Positions 111 through 61,293 of a DNA stretch of 64,000 bases are shown here, piece after piece. Below the pieces are notes generated by a model. The model did no database searches, was not told the origin of the DNA, and saw only the letters and a list, made by a program, of their open reading frames with translations. Position numbers and translations under genes: made by a program. This DNA is from Eledone cirrhosa (taxonomy: Eukaryota), in contig OZ024764.1 in NCBI GenBank assembly GCA_964016885.1, forward strand, positions 24,366,001 to 24,430,000, written 5' to 3'. The number at the start of each line of letters is the position of its first letter. Within the stretch, counting starts at the first letter, position 1.

Positions 111-175
111 TATTTTATTATATATATTTCAAGGGTAACCAAGACAACATTGGTACGCTTTCATCAGATAAAATA
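111..175 (-). ncRNA. Minimal type-I hammerhead ribozyme motif (family A)
   Basis: Reverse complement reads TATTTTAT-CTGATGA-aagcgtaccaa..ttggttaccctt-GAAA-TATATA-TA-ATAAAATA: 8-bp stem I, intact core, paired stem II, palindromic stem III. Confidence 0.8.
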
Positions 176-262
176 CAAAGTTTGTTTTACTTCTACTTAT
201 ATATATATATATAAAATAATTAAGTCAAATATTTAAAATTTGGCTCCGTTTATTAAAGATGT

Positions 263-317
263 ACTGCTCTATATATTTCGGTAACAGCCATCATTGGCTA
301 TGACCTCTTCAGGCAGT
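263..317 (-). ncRNA. Hammerhead motif with mutated cleavage site
   Basis: ACTGC-CTGAAGA-ggtcatagcca/tggctgttacc-GAAA-TATATA-GA-GCAGT; stems pair, but the UH position reads GA. Confidence 0.6.
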
Positions 318-469
318 CCGAATTGGTGTGGGAAAGACAGGTACACATGTTGTTGAATGTGTTTTACTCCGTCAATACTCCGATATGTTCAACTCCTGGT
401 TGTGTTGTTATTTCTCTGAGGAACTGGAATCATATGTTAACAAATGAAAAATATTCGCATTATCAAAAT

Positions 470-541
470 ATATATTTTATTATATATATTTCAAAGGTAC
501 TATGTTGTTTTTTCAGTACGTCCTCATCAGACAAAATATAT
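470..541 (-). ncRNA. Minimal hammerhead motif, left arm of fold-back 434-730
   Basis: ATATATTTTGT-CTGATGA-ggacgtact..agtaccttt-GAAA-TATATA-TA-ATAAAATATAT. Confidence 0.75.
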
Positions 542-620
542 GATTTGATATATGACATAGCGCTACGGTCTTGATTATTCAATTCTCGACTGCCAATACG
601 GCTATGTCATATATCAAATC

Positions 621-694
621 ATATATTTTGTCTGATGAGGACGTACTGAAAAAAAACAACATAGTACCTTTGAAATATATATAATAAAGTATAT
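621..694 (+). ncRNA. Minimal hammerhead motif, right arm of fold-back 434-730
   Basis: CTGATGA 632-638, GAAA 672-675, TATATA, TA, then a stem I partner with G:U pairs. Confidence 0.75.
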
Positions 695-837
695 ATTTTG
701 ATTATGTGAATATTTTTCATTTGTTAACATTTTGAATAATATTAAAAACACCAGGAAAACTTAATTGTTGAGTGCTTCTAATCTATTGTAAAACTGTATT
801 CGTTGAGTAATCGACGAACCATATTAATCTTTTTGGT

Positions 838-868
<31 letters not shown>

Positions 869-956
869 GGAAAGTTATATTTAAATTGTTGGGTTAACAA
901 CGAGTAAATATTTATAACTGATATAAAAGCACTCAACAAGTATTTGGAGTATATTT

Positions 957-1853: not shown

Positions 1854-2378
1854 ATGGCTGCACGAGTGTATGGTCGCGTTACCTTAGTTGAAGATATTTT
1901 GGATAACAATGCTATTGTTAATCGCTTTGAAACAATGTACACACTCTTCCCGGCGATAGACGGTGACACGTTGTGTATGTTACAGTGGTTGGCCAGTCGA
2001 CGTCTGTTGACCAACAGTGTGGAGTGTCCTGTCTGCAATAAGGCGTGCACATTGACAAGATATTCTGAGGGAATTGATAAATGGAGGTGGCGATGCGGCC
2101 GCGACAAATTTAGTCAATCGGTGCGACGGAATTCTATATTTTATCGAAGCCGTCTTCCACTCGATCACCTTATTGGCATTATCTATATGTGGTGCTACGA
2201 TCATGCCCAAAAAGAGATGATGAGGGAAACAGGACTTAGCAAGCCGACAGTTATAGACTGGTGCAACTTCCTTAAAGAAACTTGTCAGCAGTATTTTGAG
2301 GCGAATCCTCAACAGAGAGTTGGTACCAACAAGTTTGGTGAGATGATCAACTGTATTTCAGCTATTTATAGGGTGTAA
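1854..2378 (+). pseudogene. Merlin/IS1595 (ISXO2-like) transposase N-terminal fragment
   Basis: CPVC..WRWRC zinc ribbon, SVRRNSIF..SRLPL, TGLSKPTVIDWCNFL HTH-like segment; ends before the DDE domain; flanked by inverted arms 1380-1653 and 2334-2523. Confidence 0.7.
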
Positions 2379-2529
2379 TAAGGATTTTCATAAGGTACGT
2401 CAATTTATATTTTATATGCAACAAACCTATAACTATGGAGTTATTTAAAACAAACAAAAAAAATGTATTTATTTCAACACACAATGTCATTATTTAAAAA
2501 AAGATTTTCCGTACACACAATACATATGT

Positions 2530-2572
2530 GTGTATATATTTATATATAAATATATATATATATGTGTGTATA

Positions 2573-2620
<48 letters not shown>

Positions 2621-2708
2621 TAAATAATATGTTATTGAATACTGTTAGCTTCTCGCTACAACAATTTATATACTTTTCATTTATATATATATATTATATA
2701 TATATACA

Positions 2709-2755
<47 letters not shown>

Positions 2756-2939
2756 TATATATATATATATATATATACATATATATTATAGTATATATAT
2801 ATATATATATATATACATATATATTATAGTATATATATATATATATATATATACATATATATTATAGTATATATATATATATATATATACATATATATTA
2901 TAGTATATATATATATATATATATACATATATATTATAG

Positions 2940-2971
<32 letters not shown>

Positions 2972-3093
2972 TATTATAGTATATATATATATATATATAT
3001 ATACATATATATTATAGTATATATATATATATATATATATACATATATATTATAGTATATATATATATATATATATATACATATATATTATAG

Positions 3094-3125
<32 letters not shown>

Positions 3126-3276
3126 TATTATAGTATATATATATATATATATATATACATATATATTATAGTATATATATATATATATATACATATATAT
3201 TATAGTATATATATATATATATATATACATATATATTGTATTATATTATATACATATATATTATATATATATATAT

Positions 3277-3323
<47 letters not shown>

Positions 3324-3350
3324 GTATTATATATATATACACACACACGT
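2530..3350. repeat. (TA)n-based compound microsatellite with an approx. 29-bp unit
   Basis: Recurrent (ta)n-catatatattatag unit at 2770-3240. Confidence 0.9.
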
Positions 3351-4119
3351 GTCTATGCCGTTGTACATTTCTATTCACTGCGATCCTGTACTTCCGGTCA
3401 CCGCCCACTAAACAACTTAGTTCCACCTGTAATTAATATCACAACTCCACCAATCCACACCTCCACTTTATAGATTTAATATTTTCAAGGTATTTCAACT
3501 TTATTCCAGTCATTTTTACTTCAGTTTATTTTGTTTTCTTCTTAAAATATTTCTATTTTTTTTCTTTAATCTTTCGTCGTCTTCTTCTTTCCAGATGAAA
3601 TATTTTCAGTCAACCTAATTATTGTTATTTTCTATAAAACACTAAATATTCAACTGATTTATAAGTAATTATCATCCTCAACGATCTCTCTTACACAGTG
3701 TATCTTCCTTTATACCAGAGAAAATAAGTATATTTATCCCAGTCACATCACTAACACCATCTCTCTCTCGCTGGACTGGACTGGGTTGTGTTGTGTTCCT
3801 GAGCAAAACACTTCATGTTGCTCCAGTATAGTCTACTAGAAATGACTACCAGCAATAGCTGGGAGTTCAACCCTGCGAAGGTCTGGTGTCCTGTCCAGGG
3901 GGAAGTAGTGTCAGTCGCTTAACACCAAGGAAACCAGGATAACCACCGACCTGGTCACCCCCCGGGCTTGAGACATACTTTAACCTGCGATAGATAACAA
4001 ATGTATATTTATCCATGTCAGATCACCAACACCATCTCTCTCTCACACTTTCAGTCTTTCTCTACTAAATTTACAGAATCTACATCTTTATAACGGAGAG
4101 AAACCTGTAGTTTAAGGTA

Positions 4120-7100
4120 TCATCATCATCATCATCACCGTTTTACGTCCGTTCTTCCACGCTAGCATGGGTTAGACGGGTTGTCCTGTTGTGGGCAATG
4201 TTAGGTCGGCTGACCTTGTCTTGCTCATAAGGGAACTGATTCTGGCTTGATTTCTACAGCTGGATGCCCTTCCTAACACCAACCTCATTTACAGTGAGTG
4301 CTGGGTGCTTTTTTACCGTGGCCCCTACACGTCCACTTTACAGTGTGGGCTGGGTGCTTTTTTGCCGTGGCACCTCTACGAGGGTGTGGGGGCATATTGT
4401 CTATATGCTTCAACTTTGGCTTGTACCCGTGGGGGCTCGGGTCTTCTGTATTACTGCATGACGCCAGAGGTCACGGTCGTGTGTCATCGCATTTGAGAGG
4501 TGTAATTGGGTAAGGTCGGTTTTTATCACCTCATCCCAGGTCTTCTTGGGCCTCCCTACTCCGCGGCTTCCATCGACTTCTAGTGCTCTGCACCTTTTTA
4601 TGCAGCTGTCATCCTTCATATGCATCACATGTCCATACCAGCGCAACCGCCTCTCCTGCACAAGGAATTTCATTTCTCTGATGCTCAGTCTCTCTCTCTC
4701 AATTCATTTATGCTTTCTCGGAGCATGCAGGCTTCGTTTCTTTCTAATCTACGTACGTCTTCCACCTTCAGCCCCCAGGTCTCACTACCATGTAACATTG
4801 CTGTTCGGATACACACATCATACAGTCTGCCTTTCATTTTGAGGGAGAAGCCTTTTGCAGCTAGCAGTGGCAGTAGTTCTCTGAACTTCTTCCACAGTTT
4901 TCCCTAGTTACTGTACTTTCCGAACTTACCCGTTCTTACCCTAGTTACTGTACTTTCCGAACACCCACTTCTGCTGCTAATTCGGTCACCTAGGTAGCAG
5001 AAGCTGTCTACTGTTTCTATAGAGCCCTCCCAGAGTTTGGTGGTACTTGTTTCCTGTGGCTGTTTGCTGCTTGTTGTCCCAGCACAGCTGCTGCATGTGA
5101 AGCTTACATTGTTAGATAAACTTCCTGAGATCCCACCACATCTCTTGAGTACCCATTGTTTGCATTTGGGGCAGAGAATGGAGTTCCTACCTACACCTAT
5201 CATACATACCGAACAAGGCCATTTCCCTGAGGGGATCTGGGTTCTGTTTTCTCGTCTACTTATGAGGACCTTAGTCTTTGTCAGGTTGACTTTGAGACCC
5301 TTTCTTTCTAGGCCATGCTTCCAAGTTTGGAGTTTCTTCTCTATTTCCACCATAGATTCAGCTATAAGTGCGAGGTCATCAGCATACAGGAGTTCCCATG
5401 GGCATCCGGTCTTAAACTCTTCTGTTGCAGCCTGCAATACTATAATAAACAGGAGAGGGCTAAGAACAGAGCCCTGGTGGACACCAACCTATAAGCTAAA
5501 TTCCTCGCTATTGTTATGGTTAACCCTAACTTTGCTGACTGCTCCCCTATACATGGCTTGTACAGCTCTCACAAGCCATTCATCTACTCCTAGTTTTCTA
5601 AGAGCCCACCAGATTATGACACGGGGCGCTCTGTCGAGTGCTTTTTCCAGATCGACAAATGCCAAGTAGAGTGGCTTACTTTTAGCAAGGTACTTTTCCT
5701 GTAACTGCCTCACAAGGAAGAGGGCATCAGTGGTACCTCTTCCTGGCACAAACCCAAACTGCATCTCGTCTAGTTTTACCCGGTCCCTAATCAACTGTGT
5801 TATAACTCTTTCCGTTACTTTCATGACCTGGTCCATCAGCTTTATACCTCTATAGTTTCCTCTATCTAGTGCATCTCCTTTACCCTTGTAGCAGTTGACA
5901 ATGATGCTGCTGCACCAATCCTTTGGTATGACACCTTCTAGTATTACCTGGTTAACAATACGTGTGGTTATGGTGTGACCTACCGACCCAGATGCTTTCA
6001 GCATCTCGGCAGCTATATCCGATGGACCGGTTGCCTTCCTCGTCTTCATATCTTTCATTGCTTTACTTACTACGCTGCTGCTGACTTGTACTGCTGGCCC
6101 CTCTATAGGGTCTACTTGGGGTAGGGTCTCTTCTTCCCATGCATTCTCCTCATTTAGTAATCTATCATAATGGCTCTTCCATGCATCTTTCTTCTCAGCA
6201 CTTGTGAAGGCAAGCTCACCTTTATCATTCCGGATACACTTCTCTCCAATGACATCACAATTCTCTCTGGCACACTGCCTCGCAATCCTGAACATCTCCT
6301 GTTTCTGGTCCTCACATTGCAAAACATGCTTGAATTTTCTATCCTCTGCTTCCCTCCTAGCTAAGTATACTTGTCGCCTAGCTTCCCTCTTGGTCTCTAT
6401 GTAATGTACCCTGCCCCCCCCCGTTCTTCCATTCTTTCCATGCCTGCTTCTTGGCCTTAACTGCCTCATCTACCTTATTGTTCCACCACCAAGTCACTCT
6501 CCTCCTCCCTGTGGTCTTACTCCAGCCACAGATCTCATCCGTCACTTTTAGTAAGTTATTTTATAGGAACTCCCAGTGCTCTTCTACATTGAATGTCTCT
6601 ATCTGTTCTTCTTTACTGTCATAGGCGTCAAGTAGGATATCTTTAAATCTGTTACTGGCTGAGGGGGTCTTTCAGCTTCCAGATCTTTCTTCTCCAGGTT
6701 GCCTTCTCTTTCCAAGTTCGTCTAGTTCTGACCGTGAGGTCGCTGACAACTAAGTTATGTTGGGAGGTACATTCCTCACCAGGGAATGCTTTTGTGTTTA
6801 CAACCATCCATCTATCACGTCCTCTGATGACGATAAAATCTATCTGACTAGAATGCTCCCCTGATCTATAGGTGATCAGATGGTTGTTGGATTTTTTGAA
6901 GTTTGTGTTACATATCGACATGTCATTGGCGTCGCAGAATTCTAGAAGCCTTCTTCGTTTCTTGTGCCAAACCCGTAGCCTCCATGGAATCTATAGAAGC
7001 CATCACAGTGTTTCCCAACGTGTCCGTTAAAATCTTCAGCAATTATTAGGAAGTCACTGTCGTTTGTTAAGGACTCGTAAAAGTTTGTCTGGCAACCCTG

Positions 7101-7392
7101 ATTGGGCTGCGTAAGCTGATATAATTGTAGCAATTGTTTTATTCAGGACTAGTCTGAGTTTAATGATTCTTGCGTTCACCCTGTTCACTGAGATTACCTT
7201 ACCTATCCATTTGTGAGCTAGTAGGATACCTACACCACCCATCCTGTTGTCATTTCCCACCCAGAAAAAGTTTTAGCACTGACTTCTGCCTGCAAGGACT
7301 CTAGCGGACTCTGCTCTCCATCTAGTCTCTTGCACACAGCATACATCAATTTCCTTTCCCTCTAGCATCTCTACGATTTCTCCTGCTGTTGT
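4120..7392 (-). mobile_element. RTE-clade LINE, 5'-truncated and disrupted (APE endonuclease + RT)
   Basis: CVQETRW near 7330, DFNGHVG, SQIDF (APE); KGKGD..NYRGIKL, QFGFVPGRGTTDA, FVDLEKA, LLYADD (RT); RRLRWYGHV; (ATG)n 3' tail at 4120-4137; stops and frameshifts incl. a 37-bp duplication at 4902-4962. Confidence 0.92.
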
Positions 7393-7435
7393 ATATATAT
7401 GTTATACAATCTGAAGGTCTAACTGTAGTATATAT

Positions 7436-7820
7436 CATCATCATCAAAGGCGATGACACACGACCGTGACCTCTGGCGTCACGCAGTAATACAGAGTACC
7501 CGACCTCCCATGGGTACAAGCTGAAGCCTATAGACAATATGCCCCCACACCCCCCACCGCAAGGTGGTCGTGGAGGTGCCACGGCAAAAAAGCACCCAGC
7601 CCACACTGTAAAGTGGACGTGTAGGCGCCACAAAAAAAGCACCCAGCACTCACTGTAAATGAGGTTGGTGTTAGGAAGGGCATCCGGCTGTAGAAATCAA
7701 GCCAAATCAGTTCGTGTATGAGCAAGGCATGGTCAGCCGACCAGACACTGCCCACAACAGGACAACCCGTCTAACCCATGCTAGCGTGGAAGAACGGACG
7801 TAAAACGGTGATGATGATGA
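7436..7820 (+). mobile_element. RTE LINE 3'-end fragment
   Basis: Reverse-complement match to 4120-4490; ends in (GAT)n. Confidence 0.85.
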
Positions 7821-8107
7821 TCATCATCATCATCGTTTAACGTCCATCTTCCACGCTAGCATGGGTTTGGTCGGGAATTTTTCCACTTGAGGCAAGAGTG
7901 GTTGACTTGCTCGTATAAGACTGTCTGGCGGGTTTTCTACGGCTGGATGCCCTTCCTAACACCAACCACGTTTACAGTGTGGACTGGGAGGTTTTTACCG
8001 CGTTACCTACACGGCCACATTACAGTGTGGACTGTGTGTTTTTTTGTCGTGACACCTCCACGACCTCATTTGTTTCGGGCTGGATGTTGTGGTACCAACA
8101 AAACTTA
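7821..8107 (-). mobile_element. RTE 3'-UTR fragment (second subfamily), tail-to-tail with the previous one
   Basis: (CAT)n tail and ggatgcccttcctaacaccaacc core. Confidence 0.8.
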
Positions 8108-8112
8108 ACATA

Positions 8113-8145
<33 letters not shown>

Positions 8146-9000
8146 GTTCTAAACAACAGTAGATGAACCAAAAGACTTTATGCTCACCGTGTGTATATAT
8201 AAAATTAAATATGAAATAATAATTGTTTCTACTTTTAGCACAAGGCCAGCAATTACCCCAGTGTATTACTGGTACTTTATTTTATCGACCCCGTAAGGAC
8301 GAAAGGCAATGTTAACCTCGGTGGGATTATGAAATAATAATAATGAAAATTATGTACAGTGCTCAGGTGCACTACAACTCATCAAAGGTACATGTATAGT
8401 ACATAGAATAATGTAAAAATCATAGATTTCCCAGGATTTTTAATGATAGGGGTCCCCCGTTCTATCAATACAGGTTTAGCTAGCCTCCTACGAGGTTGTA
8501 TCTCATTGGAGGTTTCTCAAGTGTTTTAATGATAGGGGCCCAAAACCTATCATGTTCTTACAACACCTATGTAGGTTTAGCAGGCTTCATACAATGTCGT
8601 ACTTCATAGGAGGACACTTGGGTGTTTTAATGAAAGGCGCCCCTGTTATATCTTACAATTACAACACACACCTGTGTAGGTTTAGCTGGCCCCTACAAGA
8701 TTGTATCTTGTAGATTTTTTTGGGGGGGTGTTTAAAGTCTCTATCTTATATTGTCACAGCTCACACCTATGTATGTGTAGCTGGCCCCTACGAGGTTTCT
8801 GCATATTAGGGGTTTTTTCTTCTCGGAGGTTTCAGCGATAGGAGGCTCCCAGTCTGGGAATCTAACCCGCATCCTTTATGACAGTGAGTCCCAACACCTT
8901 AGAGGCTGCCAGCCTGGGAATCGAACCCAGAGGCTTCTAGTCTGGGAATCAAACTCGGATCCTTATAACAGTGAGTCCAATACCTTCACAGGAAAGAGAG

Positions 9001-10520: not shown

Positions 10521-10631
10521 ACAGTTTCTGATGAAATGATTGAAGTTATATGTATTTTAAATTGAATTATGCTGTCTCCAGTGTTTAGCAATTTATAGAC
10601 AACTCTATCATGGAAACAATTGTTAGACTGT
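10521..10631 (+). ncRNA. Hammerhead motif with extended stem II
   Basis: ACAGTTT-CTGATGA-aATGAT..ATCATg-GAAA-CAATTG-TT-AGACTGT; about 78 nt between the cores. Confidence 0.7.
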
Positions 10632-10754
10632 AAATAAATCTCCTTGTCTGTACTGTTGACCATGTTATTCTTCACTTTTAATATATATATATATATCTGT
10701 CTTTTATATATATATATACACATATATATATTCGTCTCTATATATATATATAGA

Positions 10755-11882: not shown

Positions 11883-11942
<60 letters not shown>

Positions 11943-13535: not shown

Positions 13536-13744
13536 AAGTGTGTATGTAACAAATGGTGGTTTTTCTGCTAGTTAATTTAATGTACGATTGGTCAACTGAC
13601 AGTTAATCATAGTGAGGATGTGTAAAACTGGTTTGTTGGTGTCAGTATAGCAGACGTTTTAAATCCAGGTGGTTTTGTATGGATAGTGAGATTACCGGAT
13701 CAAATCATGCTCGTCACAGTTTGTAGTTAGAGAATTTAGTGGCG

Positions 13745-14165
13745 GCTTTGTGCCTACAGAAGATTGTCCACTGATCTTGCAATTGAGCAGCATATTGTTA
13801 TATTGCAGAATATGGAGCAGCTCCATATTGCAGAGTCCACTGTGGTACATTCCATTCTTGTAGGCCCTTGCATTTGATAACTTTGACCAGCTAATCTCAT
13901 ATTACTGATTGATGTCCTTAAGCTGCTAGATTTTATTGGCCAGCGTTGTTGTATTACCAAGTTTACGGTTTTTTATGGAGTGTCGATGCATAAACCATCG
14001 TTTCTTGAAGTCACCAGTCGTAGAACCTATGTAATACCACACCTGGTTGCCAGACTTAATAGTACACAGGTATACCATACAGGACTCCAGGCACCTATTC
14101 TGTAGTGGGCATTTATCTGGTAGGTGGCAGTTACATTTGGAGGCCTTCCTATGCAGGTTCCTCGT
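13745..14165 (-). pseudogene. Penelope-like element GIY-YIG endonuclease remnant (Neptune-type Cys linker)
   Basis: Manual translation: KCNCHLPDKCPLQNRCLESCMVYLCTIKSGNQVWYYIGSTTGDFKKRWFMHRHSIKN..TTLANKI*QLKDINQ*YEISWS..ARAYKNG..LCNMELLHI..LLN / CRHK; two stops and a frameshift. Confidence 0.8.
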
Positions 14166-14719
14166 TGTAGTTCAATTTGTGGTTTGAGTTAAGTTGGGAT
14201 GCTAGTCTGTTGGTGTTTTGTTGTGACATATATTGATGGACAGCTGGTTGTGATGCTGTTACACGGTTGCGTTTTCTATTTGATGTTATAGTGTATGTTA
14301 GTAGACTATATACACACACACACACACACTAAAGCATATAATGTTTCTCTATTATTTCAGAATTCAGATGACATTGGCATTAAAGAATATTTTCACCTTG
14401 GATAGACCATCAATATTTATCATCTTTTAAAGACTAAAAGAAGTTGTTATACAGAACAGATATAACCCTGTATATATAAATCTGGGGTAGAATTACTGAA
14501 ATATCTCCTCTGACTGAGTTTATTGTCAATATTTCTCTACTTCACTGTCTGGAATATGTACAAGATGATTTTGTATTTTAACTAAACTTGGATTAGAAAG
14601 AAATTTGCATCATCTTCAGATATCAACAAAGATCACAGTTGATGGAAATATTTTCTAGGAATAAAATATAAAAACTAAAACAAGAGAAACATCTGTATAC
14701 TTTATCAAGAGAAGAAACA

Positions 14720-16405
14720 ATGGAAAATAAAGTTTGTGAGAAGAAGATAAAATGTGAAACAGAGTCTAAAGAGACCGATGTTCCAGATGAGAAGCTAAAA
14801 GATATAAGCAAGGCATTGTACAGTTGTGACATCTGTAGTAAGTCGTTCACTCGGAAAGGTAGCCTTATTTCTCACAAACGTATTCATACAGGAGAGAAAC
14901 CATATCACTGCAATACCTGTGGTAAATCATTCTCTCAAAACAGTCACTTAACTAGACACAACCATATTCATACAGGAAAAAAGCCATATCATTGTGAGAC
15001 CTATGGTAAATCTTTCTCTCGAAATGGTGACTTAACTAAACACAAAATTATTCACTGTGATATCTGTGGTAAATCATTCTCTGGAAGGGGTTCATTAAAT
15101 GACCACAAACGTCTTCATACAGGAGAGAAACCATATCACTGTGATATCTGTGGTAAATCATTCTCTAGATGTAGTGAATTAACTATACACATACGTATTC
15201 ATACAGGAGAGAAACCATATCAGTGTGACATCTGTGGTAAATCATTCTCTCATGGGAGTGCAGCAACTAGACATAAAACTATACATACTGGAGAGAAAAC
15301 TTATCACTGCAATACCTGTGGTAAATCATTCTCTCTTGAGAATGTTCTAATTACTCACATACGTACGCATACAGGAGAGAAACCATATCGCTGTGATATC
15401 TGTGGTAAATCATTCACTCAAGTCAGTCACTTAACTATACATAACCATATTCACACAGAAAAAAAGCCATATCATTGTGATATCTGTGGTAAATCATTCT
15501 CTCAAAATGATTCCTTAACTAAACACACACGTATTCATACAGGAGAGACTCCGTATCACTGTGATATCTGTGGTAAATCATTCTCTCAAAATAGTGACTT
15601 AACTAAACACAAACGCATTCATACAGGAGAGAAGCCATATCAATGTGATTTCTGTGGTAAATCATACGCTTTAAAACATACTTTAACTCTTCACCAACGT
15701 AGGCATACAGGAGAAAAACTGTATCACTGTGATATCTGTGGTAAATCATTCTCTGATGGGGGTGCAGTAACTAAACATAAAACTATTCATACAGGAGAGA
15801 AGCCATATCTCTGTGACATATGTGGTAAATCATTCTCTGTAGGGACTTCATTAAATAAGCACAAACGTATTCATACTGAGGAGAAATCATATCATTGTGA
15901 TATCTGTGGTAAATCATTCTCTAGATGTATTGAATTAACTATACACAAACGTACTCATACAGGAGAGAAACCATATCACTGTGATATCTGTGGTAAATCA
16001 TTCACTATAAGTAGTCACTTAAATACACATAAACGTAGTCATACAGGAGAGAAGCCATATCACTGTGATATCTGTGATAAATCATTCTCTCAAAATAGTG
16101 ACTTATCTATACACAAACGTATTCATACAGAAGGTAAACTATATCACTGTGATATCTGTGGTAAATCATTCTCTCAGAATAGTGACTTAACTAGACACAA
16201 ACGTATTCATACAGGAGAGAAGCCATATAATTGTGATTTCTGTGGTAAATCATTCGCTTTAAAACATACTTTAACTCTTCACCAACGTATTCACACAGGA
16301 GAGAAGCCATATCACTGTGATATCTGTGGTAAATCATTCTCCCAAAATAGCTATTTTACTAAACACAAACGTATTCATACAGGAAAGAAGGCATATCACC
16401 AGTAA
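14720..16405 (+). CDS. Tandem C2H2 zinc-finger protein, 19 fingers (ZF-1)
   Basis: 561-aa ORF of CxxC-x12-HxxxH units with TGEKPY linkers; finger 3 has C->Y; candidate splice acceptor ttatttcag ending at 14360. Confidence 0.93.
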
Positions 16406-39058: not shown

Positions 39059-39120
39059 TATTTTATCTGATGATAGGGTACCAACATTTTTGGTACCCTT
39101 GAAATATATATAATAGAATA
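39059..39120 (+). ncRNA. Minimal hammerhead motif (family A) within fold-back 38795-39148
   Basis: TATTTTAT-CTGATGA-tAGGGTACCAA-cattt-TTGGTACCCTt-GAAA-TATATA-TA-ATAGAATA. Confidence 0.85.
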
Positions 39121-39966
39121 AATATAGTTTCCATTTATTTAATATCATTTTGTGTATATATATTGTATATATATATATAGTGAAAGGGTGAAGAATAACA
39201 TGGTCAACAGTACAAATTATTATTATTATATATATATATTATTGTTTTTACTTTTGGCTCAAGGCCACCCAGTACATTACTGGTACTTTATTTTATTTGA
39301 TCCCGTAAGGATGAAAGGCAAAGTTATCCTCGGCAGGATTTGAACACAGACCGTAAAAGCCATAACTCTTTGCTGCAAAGCATGGCGTCCGACGCTCTAC
39401 GGATTCTGCCAACCACCAAATGTTACTCAATATGATGGTGTAGTTATAATTTGTAAATATGTAGATCTTCACATGGAGTTAATAAATTAATAAACTGTTT
39501 GTGCAAAAGTGTGTCATTCATTAATGTAATGTAGTAAAGTTTCCATTATTGAATCACATATTTTAGGGATTTTTCTGCAATAACATAATGTTTCTCTATT
39601 ATTTCAGAATTCAGATGACATTGGCATTAAAGAATATTTTCACCTTGGATAGATCATCAATATTTATCATCTTTTAAAGACTAAAAGAAGTTGTTATACA
39701 GAACAGATATAACCCTGTATATATAAATCTGGGGTAGAATTACTGAAATATTTCCTCTGACTGAGTTTATTGTCAATATTTCTCTACTTCACTGTCTGGA
39801 ATATGTACAAGATGATTTTGTATTTTAACTAAACTTGGATTAGAAAGAAATTTGCATCATCTTCAGATATCAACAAAGATCACAGTTGATGGAAATATTT
39901 TCTAGGAATAAAATATAAAAACTAAAACAAGAGAAACATCTGTATACTTTATCAAGAGAAGAAACA

Positions 39967-41055
39967 ATGGAAAATAAAGTTTGTGAGAAGAAGATAAAAT
40001 GTGAAACAGAGTCTAAAGAGACCGATGTTCCAGATGAGAAGCTAAAAGATATAAGCAAGGCATTATACAGTTGTGACATCTGTAGTAAGTCGTTCGCTCA
40101 GAAAGGTAATCTTACTACTCACAAACGTATTCATACAGGTGAGAAACCATATCACTGTGATATCTGTAATAAATCATTCTCCCGCAAAGTTAACTTAACT
40201 GAACATAAATACATTCATACAGGAGAGAAGCCATATCAATGTGATATCTGTGGTAAATCATTCTCTGGAAGTAGTCACTTAACTAGGCACAAACACATAC
40301 ATACAGGAGAGAAGCCATACCACTGTAATGTCTGTGATAAATCATTCTCTCAAAAAGGTAACTTAAGTGAACACAAATACATTCATACAGGAGAGAAACC
40401 ATATCGCTGTGATATCTGTGGTAAAGCATTCTCTGGAAGTAGTCTGTTAACTAGACACAAACACATTCATGAAAGACAGATCCCTCATCACTGTGATGTC
40501 TGTGGTAAATCATTCTCTAAAAATAGCCACATAAATAGACACAAACGCATTCATACCGGGGAGAAACCATATCACTGTGAAATGTGTAAAAAATCATTCT
40601 CTGACCGGGGTACCTTAAATAATCACAAATGCTCTCACACAAGAGAAAAACCATACCGCTGTGGTATATGTGGTAAATCTTTCTCTGAACAAGATTCATT
40701 AAATACTCACAAATGCATTCATTCAACTGATAAACCATATCACTGTGAAATGTGCAATAAATCTTTCTCTGACCGGGATTCCTTAAATACTCACAAATGC
40801 ACTCATACATGTGATAAGTCTTATTTCTGTAATATCTGTGGTAAATCTTTCTCTGACCAGGATACCTTAAATACTCACAAATGTGTTCATACAAATGATA
40901 AGCCTTATCACTGTGATATCTGTGATAAAACATTCTCTCAGAATGATGACTTAACAAAACATAAATGTATTCAAGCAGGAGACAAGCCGTATCATTGTGA
41001 TATCTGTGGTAAATCATTCTTTCAAAACACTACACATGTATGTATATATCCATGA
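39967..41055 (+). CDS. Tandem C2H2 zinc-finger protein, 11 fingers plus a truncated 12th (ZF-2)
   Basis: 362-aa ORF; first 43 aa identical to ZF-1; candidate acceptor ttatttcag ending at 39607. Confidence 0.9.
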
Positions 41056-49122: not shown

Positions 49123-49165
49123 GTCAAAGCTCTTTCATCACACATTCTGTGACCTCCTCAGTGAC
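49123..49165 (-). ncRNA. Minimal hammerhead motif (family C), left arm of fold-back 49120-49388
   Basis: GTCA-CTGAGGA-gGTCACA-gaatg-TGTGAT-GAAA-GAGC-TT-TGAC. Confidence 0.6.
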
Positions 49166-49342: not shown

Positions 49343-49385
49343 GTCACTGAGGAGGTCACAGAATGTGTGATGAAAGAGCTTTGAC
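49343..49385 (+). ncRNA. Minimal hammerhead motif (family C), right arm
   Basis: Same motif inverted; only a 4-bp stem I. Confidence 0.6.
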
Positions 49386-50906: not shown

Positions 50907-50977
50907 TATTTTATTATGCGCATTTCAAAAACAAATATCATCATGCAATAACATTTGTGTTTTCATCAGATAAAATA
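50907..50977 (-). ncRNA. Minimal hammerhead motif (family B), left arm of fold-back 50862-51172
   Basis: Reverse complement of 51065-51135. Confidence 0.8.
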
Positions 50978-51064
50978 GGAAGACATGATATGAAGGTTAA
51001 AAACACTTGTGGATAGAAAACTGCACTATCCACAAGTGTTTTTAACCTTTATATCATGTCTTCC

Positions 51065-51135
51065 TATTTTATCTGATGAAAACACAAATGTTATTGCATG
51101 ATGATATTTGTTTTTGAAATGCGCATAATAAAATA
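51065..51135 (+). ncRNA. Minimal hammerhead motif (family B), right arm
   Basis: TATTTTAT-CTGATGA-aaacacaaatgt..atatttgtttt-GAAA-TGCGCA-TA-ATAAAATA. Confidence 0.8.
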
Positions 51136-52485: not shown

Positions 52486-52773
52486 TATATATAAGTATGT
52501 ATAAATTTTGTTTCATTTTTTCCATACACATTTTTTGCAAACACAAAACCAACCACGCATATCTTCACTATCTCTAATCCTTCTATAGATTTAGAAAAAT
52601 AACCAATAATATATTCTATAAAAAATGTCAAAACAACAGATGGGAATCTAATTACTCACTGCCACCAAGAATTCTCACTGCTATCGAAAAACCACTCCTT
52701 CAACTATTCTTCTAACAACTTCACCCCTCCCTCCTAATATTCTCTATAAAAACTAAATAGGTCCTCAGTAATA

Positions 52774-52890
52774 TTATTCTGATGAAATGACAGTAAATAA
52801 TAACATTGAAATATTGAATGTCTGCATAACTAAAAGTTTGTAGATAGCTGTTTTAGGTTATGTAACTGTTATAGAAACACGTGTCAATAA
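52774..52890 (+). ncRNA. Hammerhead motif with extended stem II
   Basis: TTATT-CTGATGA-aATGACAGT..ACTGTTATa-GAAA-CACGTG-TC-AATAA; canonical GUC cleavage triplet. Confidence 0.75.
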
Positions 52891-53060
52891 ATTCCTTTCA
52901 ACTAAACTGTATCCATTCAAATCTTTCTATTTTTCTCCGGATTACTTTTGGAACTACAACTGGAACCGTCGAGCAAACTCTACGTGAGCTGATAATCTAC
53001 TGTGTGTAATATTTATATTACAACACAACGGAAAATACTGTATATATATATATATATATA

Positions 53061-55037: not shown

Positions 55038-55639
55038 TAAATATAAACCAGTTTGCCTTCCATCCTTACGGGGTCGATAAAATAAAGTACCAGTAATGTA
55101 CTGGGTAATTGCTGGCCTTGTGCCAAAAGTAGAAACAATTATAAATATAAACACGATAAAGAGGTATTAAACATGTTTTAGGGTTAGAATTTGATACAAT
55201 ATAAGTAAGTTTGGTCCACCAAAGAACACCCCTCTATTTCAGTGGGAAAACCATTTCTCTCGTGTCGTGTCAACTAATTTAACCTCCAAGATGTTGGCAT
55301 TCGGCTTTTTTTTCATCTGGTAGAAAAGATAAGTCGATTGCGAGTATTTTAGAGGCCAGGTTAGTTGATACCACACGGGGAAAAGAAAAAATTTGGAGGG
55401 AAAAGTCTGGGGAGACACCAATCCCACCCTTTTCGTGAGGAAAAAAGTCAATTGCAGGTATTTTACAGGTGAAATGAATTGATAGTAGACGGGGAAAACC
55501 TAGGAATAAGTCTTATCCACTGAAATAGAAGGTCTTCTGTAATAATACGCTCGTGTATTTTCATTATAAAGCAGGTGTAGGACACTACACTCAATGTAAA
55601 GACAGGGCTTGAATGGACCGAAGGAGAAGGTGAGGTTAA

Positions 55640-56550
55640 CCCTTTAACATTTACATTACTCTATATATACTATTGTATTGTCACAGTAAAGGCTTTACCT
55701 CACATAATATCTCACATAACATTTACATTACTCTATATATACTATTGTATTGTCACAGTAAAGGCTTTACCTCACATAATATCTCACATAACATTTACAT
55801 TACTCTATATATACTATTGTATTGTCACAGTAAAGGCTTTACCTCACATAATACCTCACATAACATTTACATTACTCTATATATACTATTGTATTTTCAC
55901 AGTAAAGGCTTTACCTCACATAATATCTCACATAACATTTACATTACTCTATATATACTATTGTATTGTCACAGTAAAGGCTTTACCTCACATAATACCT
56001 CACATAACATTTACATTACTCTATATATACTATTGTATTTTCACAGTAAAGGCTTTACCTCACATAATATCTCACATAACATTTACATTACTCTATATAT
56101 ACTATTGTATTTTCACAGTAAAGGCTTTACCTCACATAATATCTCACATAACATTTACATTACTCTATATATACTATTGTATTGTCACAGTAAAGTCTTT
56201 ACCTCACATAACATTTACATTACTCTATATATACTATTGTATTGTCACAGTAAAGGCTTTACCTCACATAATACCTCACATAACATTTACATTACTCTAT
56301 ATATACTATTGTATTTTCACAGTAAAGGCTTTACCTCACATAATATCTCACATAACATTTACATTACTCTATATATACTATTGTATTTTCATGGTAAAGG
56401 CTTTATCTTACATAATATCGAATGTATGAAATTTTGATATTGTTTAAGTTCAATACCTTAACATCAGTATGAGTGGCCAGTTACAGCTGGTTTGAACAGA
56501 AATAGGTGAGAGAAGTCTGGCCAGATGCAGCAGGTTTAAATGCTAAAGGT
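55640..56550. mobile_element. piggyBac-type MITE with an internal 72-bp array (about 10 copies)
   Basis: TTAA-CCCTTTAACATTTA ... TAAATGCTAAAGGT-TTAA; same unit as 43755-46625; body matches 43442-43568. Confidence 0.75.
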
Positions 56551-57190: not shown

Positions 57191-57660
57191 CTAGCAGTGT
57201 ATCCCGGCCTTGCACGGGTAAGAACATTGGTAATAGCACCTCCAATGAGAAACGTTTATTTGTGAGTGCCTCTTAAAAACTCATGAAAATAAAGCGACAG
57301 GAAACTTGTTTTATTTGGAGAAAATTAAGAAGTTGAAAGCACAGTTTAGCTGTCTACATGCATTGTTCATAGAAATATTGTTCAGCCCCTTCTTTTCATA
57401 CTCCTCTGTTTTGTCCTTTTGGAGTAAATGTGAAAGAGAAAGTCACAGGTTAAGTTGGTAGAAGGTTCCAGTGTCAGGAGTAAGGCGTAGGCTACTTACC
57501 TCAAAAGTTCATTCGCACTCTTTCCACTAAGTTACTCTTTCTCTCTATCCCTCTCGGTGCAGTCCCTTGCGAATTTCTCGAGTAGGCCTGGTGTAGATTT
57601 GCGCCCGATCCATCTGCCCGATGCATATGCCCGCTTTGTACGGCTTTTGGAGGTGATATA
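57191..57660. mobile_element. Possible Helitron/Helentron-derived fragment
   Basis: ctagcagtgtatcccggccttgcacggg terminal hairpin-like motif; the other end is unclear. Confidence 0.35.
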
Positions 57661-58394
57661 GTTGTGAGGTGTCTTAATCATCACCACCACCACCATCATC
57701 ATCGTTTAATGTCTATATTCCACGCTAGCATGGGTTAGACGGGAATTGTTCCACTTGAGGCAAGATTGATCGGGTGACCGTGTATGTATGTATGTGTGTG
57801 TATGTTCGTATGTATGTATATGTATACACCCACACCTTTCATCACAATTGCTTCTTTTTGTTATCATTTCTGTTGAAGTTGTTCTTGTAACTGTTGTCAA
57901 AGTTGACATCCTTATGTTCATATTCTTTGGTTGCTTTGGTTTTTCTTTTATCTCCCTAGGGAATTCGTTGACAAGCTTCTTTTATTTATTTTCTTCATTT
58001 TCTTCATTTTCTTCATTTAAATGCATTCACACTGGCTGTCTAAGAGACGTACAAAATATGACTTATAAAACTTACCAAACTAAAGAGCCTTCCAGCGCCC
58101 CTCTAGCGCCCCCCAAAGTTTCAAACGCCCTCCCCCCTCTAACGACGCCGTTGAGAACCTTTATTTTAGAGGGTAACACCAACATTCTCTGTTATAGTAA
58201 TTCAAGGAGTAGTTTTACCTGTTTTCCTTTTTCTTTTTGACCCCCCCCCCCCTTTTTTTTTATTGATTTCACTGTTTTGTAAATAATTTATTAATTTTTC
58301 ATAATTACTTTTATTTCATTCTATTTGTTGTTAATAAAAGAATTATATTCAAGGAATTTATCAAGTCTGTAACTTCAACTTTTTGTTATTTTGC

Positions 58395-59037
58395 CATCTA
58401 AATCTCTGTTATTAACACCATATGTAATGATATCATCTTGTTAGTAGTTTTAATACATCTAACACCCATCTAAATCTCTGTTATTAACACCATATGTAAT
58501 GATATCATCTTGTTAGTAGTTTTAATACATCTAACACCCATCTAAATCTCTGTTATTAACACCATATGTAATGATATCATCTTGTTAGTAGTTTTAATAC
58601 ATCTAACACCCATCTAAATCTCTGTTATTAACACCATATGTAATGATATCATCTTGTTAGTAGTTTTAATACATCTAACACCCATCTAAATCTCTGTTAT
58701 TAACACCATATGTAATGAAATCATCTTGTTAGTAGTTTTAATACATCTAACACCTATCTAAATCTCTGTTATTAACACCATATGTAATGATATCATCTTG
58801 TTAGTAGTTTTAATACATCTAACACCCATCTAAATCTCTGTTATTAACACCATATGTAATGATATCATCTTGTTAGTAGTTTTAATACATCTAACACCCA
58901 TCTAAATCTCTGTTATTAACACCATATGTAATGATATCATCTTGTTAGTAGTTTTAATACATCTAACACCCATCTAAATCTCTGTTATTAACACCATATG
59001 TAATGATATCTTGTAAGTAGTTTTAATACATCTAACA
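58395..59037. repeat. 72-bp tandem repeat, about 9 copies (unrelated unit)
   Basis: catctaaatctctgttattaacacc recurs every 72 bp. Confidence 0.93.
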
Positions 59038-59260
59038 CAAACACTTCAATATTGTTTAAAATCATTGAAATTCTATCATTCTTTGTATATTTTACAACTG
59101 AAATTTAGAAATTTGACAATATCCTGGTTATAGGGCCACTAACTTTGGTGGTATCATTGTTTCCCTAAAGTAACAAGATAAATTAAAACTTAGATCACAA
59201 ACTGTTGAAGTATTAGTTGTTTGTTGTTGAACTTGTAGTAATGGAGATTACTGGCATTCT

Positions 59261-60010
59261 TGGTCCCTATACCACCTCCCTGCTAACTGTTATCAGGGTG
59301 GAGTTAGCCACCCACAGGAGTGTCATGTTAAACTATAGTGGTGGAGTCAATTGTCAGACTTGGTCCCTATACCACCTCCCTACTAACTGTTATCAGGGTG
59401 GAGTTAGCCACACACAGGAGTGTCATGTTAAACTATAGTGGTGGAGTCAATTGTCAGACTTGGTCCCTATACCACCTCCCTACTAACTGTTATCAGGGTG
59501 GAGTTAGCCACCCACAGGAGTGTCATGTTAAACTATAGTGGTGGAGTCAATTGTCAGACTTGGTCCCTATACCACCTCCCTACTAACTGTTATCAGGGTG
59601 GAGTTAGCCACACACAGGAGTGTCATGTTAAACTATAGTGGTGGAGTCAATTGTCAGACTTGGTCCCTATACCACCTCCTTGCTAACTGTTATCAGGGTG
59701 GAGTTAGCCACCCACAGGAGTGTCATGTTAAACTATAGTGGTGGAGTCAATTGTCAGACTTGGTCCCTATACCACCTCCCTACTAACTGTTATCAGGGTG
59801 GAGTTAGCCACACACAGGAGTGTCTTGTTAAACTATAGTGGTGGAGACAATTGTCAGACTTGGTCCCTATACCACCTCCCTACTAACTGTTATCACGGTG
59901 GAGTTAGCCACCCACAGGAGTGTCATGTTAAACTATAGTGGTGGAGTCAATTGTCAGACTTGGTCCCTATACCACCTCCCTACTAACTGCTATCAGGTTG
60001 GAATTGGCCA
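59261..60010. repeat. 100-bp tandem repeat, about 7.5 copies
   Basis: tggtccctataccacctccc at 59261, 59361 ... 59961; alternating cccacag/cacacag variants. Confidence 0.95.
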
Positions 60011-60019
60011 CACACACTG

Positions 60020-61052
60020 TGATCAAGTCAAACTCAACAGTGACCTCTCAGAACCCTTCCCAAACATCAACTGAGTGAAGAAGGGTTGTGTAGGGTCACC
60101 AACTCTCTTCAGCATGATATTCAAGCAGGCCACAGAAGATCTTGCCGGCAGCCTGTTTAATCTTCCTCAACTACAGGCACTCATGAAAGTCCCTGGAGCA
60201 ACAGATCTGAGACCTCTTCTTTGCAGACGATGCTGCTTTTGTTGGCCTCACAGAAAGAGCCTTGCAACACATCACTTCCTGCTTCACAGAAGCTGCCCAG
60301 CTCTTTGGGATGTCAGCTGAAAGAAGATAGATGTACTCCACCAGCCTACACTTCCGGAAGAGTACCTCCCTCCATATACCGATTGGTGAGACTGAACTGA
60401 AAAATGGTCCATCTGTTAACCAGCCTGGGGTGCACCATCACGTCACATCTCAAGATCGACAGGTAACAGACTGGCAAAGGTGAGCAGTGCATTTGGCAGA
60501 CTGTACAAACCTGTGTAGAATAGTAAACACCTGAAGAAGGGTACCAAGATCAGAGTATACAGAACCATAGTCCTTCCCACCTTCCTATATGGCTTAGAGT
60601 TGTGGGTCACTTAACATCACCACCTTTATCTCCTTGAGTGCAACACCAAGCTGGGCAGGGTACATCTCCTGGATGAAGGATCTGCCGAGGATCATGGTCT
60701 ACGGTGAACTCTCCACTGGTCGTTGTGACGGGGGGCCACTAAGGAAGCAATACAAGGACTGTTTGAACAAATTCCTTGTCACATCGACCATCACTGGTGG
60801 TCCACCCTAGCTGAGACATGGGACGCCTCGTGTCTCACCAACAACCAAGCTGTCTGCTCTTTGAAAAACACCCACAGGGCCACCCTCGAAGACAAGAGTC
60901 TTAGGAGGAAGAACCACAAGTAATCAAACCCTTCTCCAGACCTTCATCTGTGGCTGTGCCATGCCTGTCCTACATAGGCCTGACCAGCCACAAGCAGGCC
61001 TGCAAGCAACGTAGAACAACTCCTTAACCTTTGTTCTCGAAGCCAAGCCATG
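60020..61052 (+). mobile_element. Old RTE/BovB-like LINE fragment
   Basis: QVKLNSDLSEPF..VKKGCV..PTLFS..GSLFNL..LQA; lfADDAA-like; cgaagccaagcc 3' end. Confidence 0.75.
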
Positions 61053-61249
61053 ATAAATTTTATTGAGTTACAGATGGAGATATAAATATATATACAAACA
61101 AACAACGGATTAACACTATCAGGGGAGACAACCTCACCATGGCATAATTCAAGTCCCAGATTAGTATGATCGAGTCGGCATATATTTAAATATTGGAAGT
61201 TGTTTTAGCTGTACCCATCTAGTGATGTCCAGCAGAAGCAAGGGGGACA

Positions 61250-61293
61250 ACCGTCTATCTATTTCAGGCTTAAGTGGCCTTCGTCAGGACGGT
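61250..61293 (-). ncRNA. Compact 44-nt minimal hammerhead motif
   Basis: ACCGTC-CTGACGA-AGGC-cacttaa-GCCT-GAAA-TAGA-TA-GACGGT; 6-bp stem I, 4-bp stem II. Confidence 0.8.

Follow-up and report, generated by a model that had tools for sequence, protein, structure and literature searches.

The hammerhead motifs dispersed through this DNA are very probably type-I hammerheads of the 3' terminal repeat (pLTR) of Penelope-like elements (PLEs), left behind as short, 5'-truncated copies. We analysed a window of 64,000 nt from Eledone cirrhosa (GCA_964016885.1, OZ024764.1, positions 24,366,001 to 24,430,000, forward strand). The window has a GC content of 38% and abundant (TA)n, and TATATA is also a microsatellite word. 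A sequence-only reading had listed 13 sites in it, and CUGANGA and GAAA are present in type-I order at all 13. The core (CUGANGA, GAAA and UH) is intact in 12. The remaining site (263–317, minus strand) was correctly called mutated: it reads GAAA-TATATA-GA where family copies have -TA, and U16.1 is thus altered.

A strict descriptor gave seven matches, with 52774 misfolded among them, and a relaxed type-I descriptor was used instead. It recovered 12 of the 13 sites and matched nothing else in the window, whereas 100 dinucleotide shuffles of the window gave a mean of 0.03 matches (maximum 2) and 100 shuffles in 2-kb blocks a mean of 0.04 (maximum 1). Chance matching in AT-rich, palindrome-rich DNA might be expected from the base composition of the window, but it is refuted by these counts and by a reversed 400-kb control with no motif. 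Pattern-search controls also gave 0 matches, and compensatory changes were seen in the stems; the probability of chance is negligible. The hammerhead motifs in the window are thus confirmed. The proposed check against Rfam did not detect them: no hammerhead was among the 107 matches at E ≤ 10 for the window, nor among the 150 listed of the 191 matches for five loci. This reflects a limit of the Rfam models and not of the hammerhead core.

The 13 sites stand as motifs but not as separate events. Sites 470/621, 49123/49343 and 50907/51065 are each the two arms of one insertion, so that 10 insertions, including three head-to-head pairs, account for all motifs; they are drawn from eight high-copy families (Table 1). 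Decayed or partial copies at 37719–37896, about 950–1095 and 38779–38911 had been missed.

Table 1 Hammerhead motifs and neighbouring features in the window (EN, endonuclease; RT, reverse transcriptase; L numbers denote loci).
Feature	Positions	Strand	Predicted cut after	Context	Related copies
Type-I hammerhead, stem III TATATA	111..175	−	119	Stump 38–190, 'ACCCTT' Hydra-clade group	89.6% to L372, where the Hydra EN ends about 1.2 kb upstream
Decayed hammerhead (U16.1 = G)	263..317	−		Stump 198–448, 'ACTGC' Hydra-clade family	78–81% to L374/L375, where RT-EN ends about 1.2 kb upstream
Hammerhead, TATATA	470..541	−	481	Short-ended left arm (434–585) of inverted 'GGAC' Hydra insertion	95.3% to L376, where EN ends about 1.28 kb upstream
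Hammerhead, TATATA	621..694	+	683	Long-ended right arm (605 to about 886) of 'GGAC' insertion shared with 470..541	
Hammerhead, CAATTG, 78-nt stem II region	10521..10631	+	10624	Stump 10279–10679, Hydra-clade family	92.1% to L135; EN ends about 700 nt upstream in L131 and L135
Hammerhead, TGCGCA	32933..33003	+	32995	Stump 32872–33034, Hydra family of L088	95.0% to the 3' pLTR of L088, a near-complete family copy
Hammerhead, TATATA	39059..39120	+	39112	'ACCCTT' stump (about 38928–39179), partial inverted arm 38779–38911	77–86% to L371/L372/L382
Hammerhead, GAGC	49123..49165	−	49127	Left arm (49120–49252) of inverted Neptune-like insertion	90.4% to L380; EN ends about 235 nt upstream in L163, L164 and L175
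Hammerhead, GAGC	49343..49385	+	49381	Right arm (49278–49511) of Neptune-like insertion shared with 49123..49165	
Hammerhead, TGCGCA	50907..50977	−	50915	Long-ended left arm (50750–51011) of inverted Hydra insertion	
Hammerhead, TGCGCA	51065..51135	+	51127	Short-ended right arm (to 51171) of insertion shared with 50907..50977	
Hammerhead, CACGTG, 88-nt stem II region	52774..52890	+	52885	Insertion 52536–53048, young 3.55-kb Hydra family	96.7–97.5% to L244 (parent-type copy)
Hammerhead, decayed stem III TAGA (family TGCA)	61249..61294	−	61256	Fragment 61215–61310 with inverted arm 61313–61390, ORF-less cyclic 332-nt unit	
Broken Hydra-clade GIY-YIG endonuclease remnant	13732..14154	−		No intact hammerhead downstream	tblastn E 1e-16; 68% DNA identity to L248/L135
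C2H2 zinc-finger exon	14672..16405	+		Pfam zf-C2H2, 18 stretches	
C2H2 zinc-finger exon	39919..41055	+		Pfam zf-C2H2	
C2H2 zinc-finger exon	61949..63844	+		Pfam zf-C2H2	

Ten motifs align to six Hydra-clade PLE families, in whose long copies an RT/GIY-YIG gene lies 0.7–1.3 kb upstream, and the two GAGC motifs align to a family whose Neptune-like endonuclease lies about 235 nt upstream of the motif. The tie to PLEs that had been proposed is therefore upheld, as 12 of 13 motifs end PLE families. Family copies share their 3' ends and have staggered 5' ends. The weakest parent link is that of 39059; for the heterogeneous 'ACCCTT' group (14,161 pattern matches) it is based on two loci with patchy alignment (67–82%) and a SINE-like repeat inside. 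Pattern searches gave 10,334 matches for the 'ACTGC' family and 3,781 for the CACGTG family, though a DNA search with 52700–52920 gave no match.

The structure of the parents was examined in the longest copies. In L088, 613-nt direct repeats (95% identical) flank a 715-codon open frame, and the hammerhead lies in the 3' repeat. L244 is arranged as hammerhead, 777-codon frame and hammerhead, with 3,552 nt between the two hammerheads. The predicted L088 protein model (pLDDT 73) had TERT as its top PDB fold match (E 7.9e-8), and homologues gave weak RVT_1 and GIY-YIG matches. Pfam gave no match for the L088 and L086 parent proteins, and a PDB sequence search with an alignment gave nothing meaningful (best E 0.08). 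The Hydra motifs RW(K/I), DKT, CxCX5C, CxxC and CxH were all found in parent proteins: RVRWK and ADKT in L244, RLRWI and SDKT in L086, and the CxCX5C linker with CxxC/CxH in place of CCHH in L086, L088, L245 and L370. The L244 copy is without the linker, which its sister L245 has. Insertion into (TA)n, the pLTR structure and a hammerhead near the 3' end are further Hydra-clade traits of these elements. Judged by motifs and by eye against published sequences, the L086, L088 and L244 families are Hydra-clade PLEs. Placement of L088 in the Neptune clade was dropped for Hydra after the published clade definition (PMC8557442). The GAGC-family endonuclease fits the Neptune linker CX2-5CxxC before GIY-YIG, plus CCHH (by eye in L163/L164: CADRKCIVC, VVY..C....C...YIGET and two His). 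It is followed by a 3' UTR and the hammerhead, unlike Naiad; the copies examined are truncated within about 790 nt, and the RT region was not recovered in them.

The sequence-only reading had regarded the motifs as short non-autonomous units, and one could suppose that all of them are retrozyme- or SINE-like and travel as small RNAs. Window copies are only about 95–510 nt long, the 61250 family is such a unit, and L379 has two 'ACTGC' motifs on one strand, 494 nt apart, that may represent a short tandem derivative. However, seven of the eight families have long copies with staggered 5' ends that reach a PLE gene, and colinear parents refute the supposition for the TGCGCA, CACGTG, CAATTG, GGAC, ACTGC and GAGC families, though these groups may contain some short sub-families. 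As an account of all motifs it is thus very improbable. It was right for one of the 13 (61250) and wrong for the 12 that are 5'-truncated 3' ends of gene-bearing PLE families.

A 6-nt palindrome forms stem III in 10 of the 13 motifs, in line with the earlier claim that it usually is; the exceptions are GAGC at 49123 and 49343 and TAGA at 61250, whose family has TGCA in 24 of 30 motifs. The term 'minimal' suits stem III but not the rest, as 15–88 nt separate CUGANGA and GAAA. Stem III hexamers were self-complementary in 192 of 201 motifs picked without regard to the hexamer. In 35 related motifs, a set picked by a pairing descriptor, 97.4% of cells were paired versus 88.5% in shuffles and 36–59% in slid controls, and 85 cells carried double changes versus 29.9 in shuffles. 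Nine pairs carried double changes, a number that 169 of 500 shuffles reached. Stems said to stay paired despite divergence thus show compensatory changes overall, but the count of covarying pairs does not exceed shuffles. Stem III is predicted to favour dimers: in all 12 motifs the computed dimer fold gained 4–10 kcal/mol per motif over the monomer hammerhead fold. For three (49123, 49343 and 61250), a monomer fold other than the hammerhead was predicted to be more stable than the dimer. The two members of a head-to-head pair, being on opposite strands, cannot serve as dimer partners for each other.

We sampled 400 kb elsewhere in the genome and found 39 motifs, or 0.975 per 10 kb, which by extrapolation imply about 290,000 motifs genome-wide. 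Motif density in the window is about 1.9 times the sample mean, and 39059, on the strand of a zinc-finger gene, precedes a likely splice acceptor (near 39866, by eye) by about 750 nt, as if ribozymes had been kept or enriched to cut zinc-finger pre-mRNAs and tune the gene cluster. By resampling, however, the chance of at least 12 motifs in 64 kb was about 0.10, and the two strands are hit about equally (six plus and six minus among the 12). Core or palindrome bases are lost in two copies, and six motifs lie in self-complementary pairs. The exons at 14672..16405 and 39919..41055 share 463 nt at 99.6%, and this block common to the two paralogous genes holds no hammerhead and stops well before the nearest one; no upstream exon common to the zinc-finger genes was found. 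We consider such a role extremely unlikely, and the zinc-finger cluster, named earlier as the setting, is incidental.

Insertion 3' ends were counted in the CACGTG family (n = 20, ordered by position) and in the 332-nt unit to which 61250 belongs (n = 55), with GAGC and part of CAATTG left out. Each family has two fixed end points, both of them downstream of the cleavage site, and no end lay at that site itself. CACGTG copies ended at +41 to +45 (9/20) or at +160 (10/20), with one running on, and a microsatellite followed 19 of the 20. Copies of the 332-nt unit ended at position 157–160 in 23 of 55 and at 194–210 in 20 of 55, and none ended at the cut site 32/33.

The 332-nt unit (1,760 pattern matches) has a type-I hammerhead with a 7-bp stem I and a 4-bp stem II. 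The unit junction was crossed in 28 of 55 loci, all of which stay within the unit, and the loci have no outside flank in common, except one locus that was sampled twice. Copies exceeded one unit in 18 of 55 loci (up to 625 nt), and no long array was present among the 55. The predicted fold of the circle is stable (z −3.7). No parent PLE with this hammerhead was found, nor was a PLE gene found in L378, where two TGCA pattern matches lie 2.2 kb apart. In addition to the two fixed ends, a microsatellite flank (44/55) and an inverted arm (35/55) mark its integration. These marks indicate that the unit likely borrows the PLE copying enzyme.

Inverted pairs were listed in 101 rows, of which 14 were removed by hand: four that recurred inside tandems, and seven GGAC and three ACCCTT rows that were duplicates or members of another family. 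The remaining 87 comprised 72 short+long, 3 short+short and 2 long+long pairs and 10 that were unclassifiable. Short+long pairs, which occur in six families, thus make up 72 of 77 classifiable pairs (p 1e-16 against 0.5), suggesting that a single RNA, uncut or circular, serves as template for priming by both nicked strands of the target. A fuller reading, to which we give an even chance, is that one complex extends both nicked strands of the (TA)n target on a shared RNA that is uncut or circular, with each strand using a different internal start site, to give short+long pairs by two-site twin priming; that the 332-nt circular retrozyme uses the same machinery; and that about 290,000 motifs (1 per 10 kb), nearly all invisible to Rfam, would make this one of the most ribozyme-dense animal genomes on record. 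For the mechanism only, short+long pairing could instead follow single priming: the new DNA would fold back or switch template, and resolution by the endonuclease would then add or trim a tail at one end. The tail is often at one end only, which has been ascribed to endonuclease resolution of an intermediate (Craig et al., PMC8557442), and several pairs have hairpin-like centres. Against this, two RT start sites were measured in PAc and the tail there equals the segment that they bound (PMC11167929), and the two end types are similarly frequent (9/20 and 10/20), yet like-ended pairs are rare (5/77). We hold single priming to be possible but rather unlikely.

The truncated copies probably arose by target-primed reverse transcription at TA repeats. 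The endonuclease of the element would nick both strands of (TA)n, and each nick would prime at one of two internal start sites. The template RNA would still be whole across the hammerhead, either as an uncut tandem transcript or as a re-ligated circle, and early termination would leave stumps or head-to-head pairs. The ribozyme would act in the tandem transcript of the parent, where it would probably cleave either as a dimer joined by the palindromic stem III or assisted by the protein of the element. Stumps in the window would be passengers, and paired stumps would fold back on their own mirror image.

Because the class is known, the finding is mainly one of annotation: eight families, with parent genes identified for seven, that Rfam and Pfam miss. 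They may be additional members of the class, though Repbase/Dfam or published supplements may already hold them. With the short+long rule, how PLEs form inverted repeats and tails becomes a prediction that can be counted in an in vitro system already established. The 332-nt unit, a retrozyme-like RNA, bears marks of PLE integration, which supports a link argued elsewhere from co-occurrence and sequence likeness. If transcribed, the high-copy fold-back pairs would yield large amounts of double-stranded RNA.

Hammerheads in Hydra PLEs have been published, including one octopus family, Hydra-1_Obim of Octopus bimaculoides (Craig et al. 2021, PMC8557442). That was the sole PLE paper found on hammerheads in octopus or cephalopods; the main text of an O. 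vulgaris repeat paper (PMC13282606) does not contain the word 'hammerhead'. As described for the Hydra clade (PMC8557442), the elements have RT followed by GIY-YIG with the RWK-like, DKT, CxCX5C, CxxC and CxH motifs, (TA)n targets, 5' truncation, an inverted 5' copy, a tail, and a type-I hammerhead near the 3' end with extra bases beside stem II and a short palindromic stem III. They differ in several respects from that description: the hammerheads of the six families are unlike the listed Hydra-1_Obim motif (by eye), units are about 3.55–3.7 kb with 3' UTRs of 0.7–1.3 kb (published Hydra generally under 3 kb), stem III palindromes are even, 6 nt and loopless, stem II regions reach 88 nt, and tails are about 80–115 nt against 30–40.

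The PLE hammerheads of Cervera and de la Pena 2014 (PMC4209133) are similar in lying in pLTRs, mostly as solitary truncated copies, in opposite-strand pairs 100–700 bp apart, in many families per genome, and in their palindromic helix III variants and dimer model. The helix-III-less 'min-HHR' of that paper differ. They allow no helix III or loop 3, and all 12 window motifs have 4 or 6 nt between A15.1 and U16.1; the core-adjacent G10.1–C11.1 pair is G-C in none of the 12 window motifs, and in 7 of 51 once the sampled motifs are added (first and last stem II bases, registers with a bulged 9.1 base left out). We estimate 290,000 motifs here against 2,000–9,000 per genome there, with different descriptors.

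Retrozymes have been described as PLE derivatives, with PLEs as the proposed mobiliser (Cervera and de la Pena 2020, PMC7229834; Li, Clavereau and Pollet 2026, bioRxiv 10.64898/2026.07.22.740005). The 332-nt unit resembles the metazoan non-LTR retrozymes of these papers in size, lack of a gene, type-I hammerhead, stable predicted fold of the circle and more-than-unit copies, and has the retrozyme features of a 170–400 nt unit, gene-less, with a type-I hammerhead and tandem copies. Its sampled insertions differ in being dispersed and of 1–1.9 units instead of long arrays. Unlike in the retrozyme papers, as far as their available text goes, PLE integration marks were counted directly on the unit.

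The closest experimental system is PAc (Poseidon of Anolis), in which two internal RT start sites were found in vitro and both strands were nicked and extended (Frangieh et al. 2024, PMC11167929). RNA cleavage was not needed there, and cleavage was protein-assisted. The scheme proposed for the Eledone copies agrees with PAc in two start sites that bound the tail, an AT-rich target nicked on both strands and an uncut RNA template. A literature search on Penelope twin priming and inverted copies found nothing on the subject. In vitro, PAc had no start-site difference between the two strands, and this does not predict a short+long bias. PAc belongs to another clade, and the available text of that paper reports no strand or arm asymmetry, whereas here 72 of 77 inverted pairs are short+long.

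The hammerhead core, in the type-I order described by the sequence-only reading, was present at all 13 sites of the window (38% GC, three C2H2 zinc-finger exons). A relaxed descriptor recovered 12 of these sites without additional matches, compared with 0.03 and 0.04 matches in two sets of 100 shuffles each; an Rfam check reported no hammerhead for the window. Site 263, described as mutated, carries G in place of U16.1, and other copies of its family are intact. Stem III was a 6-nt palindrome in 10 motifs, as had been said of most. The stem II region spans 15–88 nt, and thus the motifs are minimal, as they had been called, in stem III only. Three pairs of sites are the head-to-head arms of single insertions, so that the sites represent 10 events in eight families. 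The original observation is confirmed; its interpretation, as short non-autonomous units in a zinc-finger gene cluster, is partly supported.

Features located in the window and at two loci elsewhere in the genome (L135, L379).
Position	Feature	Remarks
263–317 (−)	Hammerhead site	
950–1095	Two truncated arms, near-perfect palindrome	Each with a GAAA-TATATA-TA half only, of a related hammerhead family
37719–37896	Decayed head-to-head pair, ninth hammerhead family	Overlooked by the sequence-only reading
L135:2925	Intact-looking relative (see 37719–37896)	Stem III is 2-nt CG
11433–11885	Copy of a frequent repeat (matches in 5 of 40 sampled stretches)	GAAA upstream of CUGAUGA, near 11788–11826; possibly a rearranged hammerhead
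36091–36896, 38195–38423	Long inverted repeats (both 96–99%)	No hammerhead detected
7771–7870	Long inverted repeat	No hammerhead detected
16629–21394, 24115–27106, 43683–46580, 55581–56437	Long minisatellite arrays	Spurious open frames
4904–6990 and others	LINE RT fragments	
51519–51932	Mariner-type transposase fragment	Pfam Transposase_1
14338–14800, 39585–40047	463-nt block common to two zinc-finger genes	99.6%
52536–53048	Insertion of the CACGTG family	269 nt beyond the core
L379:997, L379:1491	Two ACTGC-family hammerheads	Same strand, 494 nt apart; another spacing of 500 nt seen

A link to the zinc-finger cluster, named as the setting, was not borne out. Forty 10-kb stretches, taken at round coordinates on 20 large contigs as a small and not strictly random sample, contained 39 comparable motifs (reversed control, 0), and the chance of at least 12 motifs in 64 kb was approximately 0.10. 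Hammerheads are not a zinc-finger feature. The density of 0.975 per 10 kb (bootstrap 0.55–1.48) extrapolates to approximately 290,000 motifs (165,000–440,000) in the 3.0-Gb assembly, and 23 stem I/stem III types occurred in the 400-kb sample. Many further families were seen in loci L184–L223, with stem III sequences such as CGATCG, CTAG, CTAATTAG, CATTAGTG and CCACTGG and stem II regions of up to approximately 115 nt. The block common to the two zinc-finger genes is a recent duplication or conversion; it takes in the likely splice acceptor together with the first codons.

Matches per family ranged from roughly one thousand to more than ten thousand. Their copies have common 3′ ends and staggered 5′ ends, and upstream extension led to a gene.

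Abundance of the eight families and their parent elements.
Family	Matches	Control	Parent element
TGCGCA	1,244 first-look candidates, not copy number		L088: 613-nt direct repeats (95%) flanking a 715-codon frame; hammerhead carried by the 3′ repeat, its 5′ counterpart decayed
CACGTG	3,781 pattern matches	0	L244: hammerhead, 777-codon frame, hammerhead; spacing 3,552 nt
CAATTG	1,629 first-look candidates, not copy number		Endonuclease end ~700 nt upstream
GGAC	940 matches to a narrow pattern	0	Endonuclease end 1.2–1.3 kb upstream, at least two loci; colinear, 85–90%
ACTGC	10,334 pattern matches	0	Endonuclease end 1.2–1.3 kb upstream, at least two loci; colinear, 85–90%
ACCCTT group	14,161 pattern matches	0	Endonuclease end 1.2–1.3 kb upstream, at least two loci; patchy alignment, 67–82%
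GAGC	3,083 first-look candidates, not copy number		Separate gene type, CX4CxxC linker and YIGET ~235 nt upstream; seen from the endonuclease part only
TGCA (332-nt unit)	1,760 pattern matches	0	

The best match of the L088 protein model was TERT (E 7.9e-8). The parent proteins contain RW(K/I), DKT, CxCX5C, CxxC and CxH, which PMC8557442 gives as defining motifs of the Hydra clade of Penelope-like elements (PLEs). An endonuclease query returned 59,821 first-look candidates. By its linker and YIGET, the gene of the GAGC family is Neptune-like. The window copies are 77–97% identical to the parent loci, and from these matches 10 motifs are Hydra ends and two are Neptune-like ends. The description as short non-autonomous units thus fails for these 12 motifs, the ends of gene-bearing PLE families, and stands for site 61250, which belongs to a 332-nt unit. 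Separately, the insertion at 52536 extends into the 5′ leader of its parent L244 and ends just ahead of the start codon, making it a copy of the element's tail-to-head junction. The ACTGC-family tandem at L379 is possibly a short non-autonomous derivative.

The 332-nt unit runs on into itself. We collected 55 loci, 25 by similarity and 30 in position order; one was fetched twice, and three pairs are two arms of single insertions. The unit junction was crossed in 28 loci, all of which remained inside the unit, and 18 of the 55 copies were longer than one unit. An inverted arm adjoined the copy in 35 of the 55 and a microsatellite lay at its end in 44, with no common foreign upstream flank among the 55 loci. 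The predicted folding energy of the circular unit was −91.4 kcal/mol, with a z-score of −3.7 relative to 100 shuffles. The unit, with its putative circular form, resembles a non-LTR retrozyme and would work like one that PLE machinery integrates.

The stems had been described as differing between families yet remaining paired. In 35 related motifs, a set picked by a pairing descriptor, 97.4% of cells were paired (88.5% in shuffles, 36–59% with slid partners), and double-change cells numbered 85 versus 29.9 in shuffles (e.g., A-U/G-C and U-A/C-G within the stem III palindrome); the nine covarying pairs were not in excess over shuffles. In a less circular test, motifs were collected by the 5′ stem and core alone: the 3′ half was present in 201 of 215, with self-complementary stem III hexamers in 192 of the 201. 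A palindrome without a loop does not pair inside a single molecule. In predicted folds, the swapped dimer was favored over the monomer hammerhead fold by 4–10 kcal/mol per motif (12 of 12), and for 9 of 12 motifs it also surpassed the most stable monomer fold; a dimer preference is predicted. In alignment A2, a mismatch of C with C or U (columns 19 and 48), three pairs into stem II, is retained across related families and its neighbors covary; it is possibly a tertiary or protein contact.

None of the insertion ends examined lay at the cleavage site. Two fixed 3′ end points, designated short and long, were found downstream of it: approximately +45 (9 of 20) and +160 (10 of 20) in CACGTG copies, mostly +42 to +52 or +130 to +134 in TGCGCA copies, and +125 to +128 (23 of 55) and +162 to +178 (20 of 55) in the 332-nt unit, neither end of which coincided with the cut at the 55 loci. 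An ACTC...GAGT motif pair begins exactly at the short end in TGCGCA, ACCCTT, ACTGC and GGAC tails; its self-pairing is predicted in two of these four tail folds.

Among 87 de-duplicated inverted pairs of six families, 72 were short+long, three short+short, two long+long and 10 unclassifiable, where independent choice would give at most one half short+long (p 1e-16). Similarity ranking, used for some of the loci, can favor long arms. In position-ordered and incidental rows alone, a hand count gave 43 of 45. Window pairs 470/621 and 50907/51065, the two classifiable there, are both short+long. With ends away from the cleavage site, the RNA template would span the hammerhead and stay whole during insertion, uncut or re-ligated. 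According to Frangieh et al. (PMC11167929), two internal RT start sites delimit the tail of the PLE Poseidon of Anolis (PAc), both strands are nicked and extended, and cleavage is unnecessary; two such sites would explain the two end points. In the simplest reading, to which we give an even chance, both nicked target strands would prime at the two start sites (twin priming). Fold-back after priming with resolution of the tail is a possible alternative that would likewise yield short+long pairs. The working ribozyme would be expected in the head-to-tail transcript of the parent. Transcription through a head-to-head pair, with one motif on each strand, would give a long hairpin and not a ribozyme dimer.

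In the literature searched, with repeat libraries and several supplements outside its scope, we found no published account of these families, their density or the short+long rule. Cervera and de la Pena (2014; PMC4209133) describe hammerheads in PLE terminal repeats (pLTRs), truncated copies that occur singly, pairs on opposite strands and a low activity of dimers. Two further sources treat retrozymes as PLE derivatives, as proposed in 2020 (PMC7229834) and argued in a 2026 preprint (10.64898/2026.07.22.740005). Craig (2021; PMC8557442) reported Hydra PLEs with hammerheads, including Hydra-1_Obim of Octopus, and the motif listed there for Hydra-1_Obim differs from the eight families described here.
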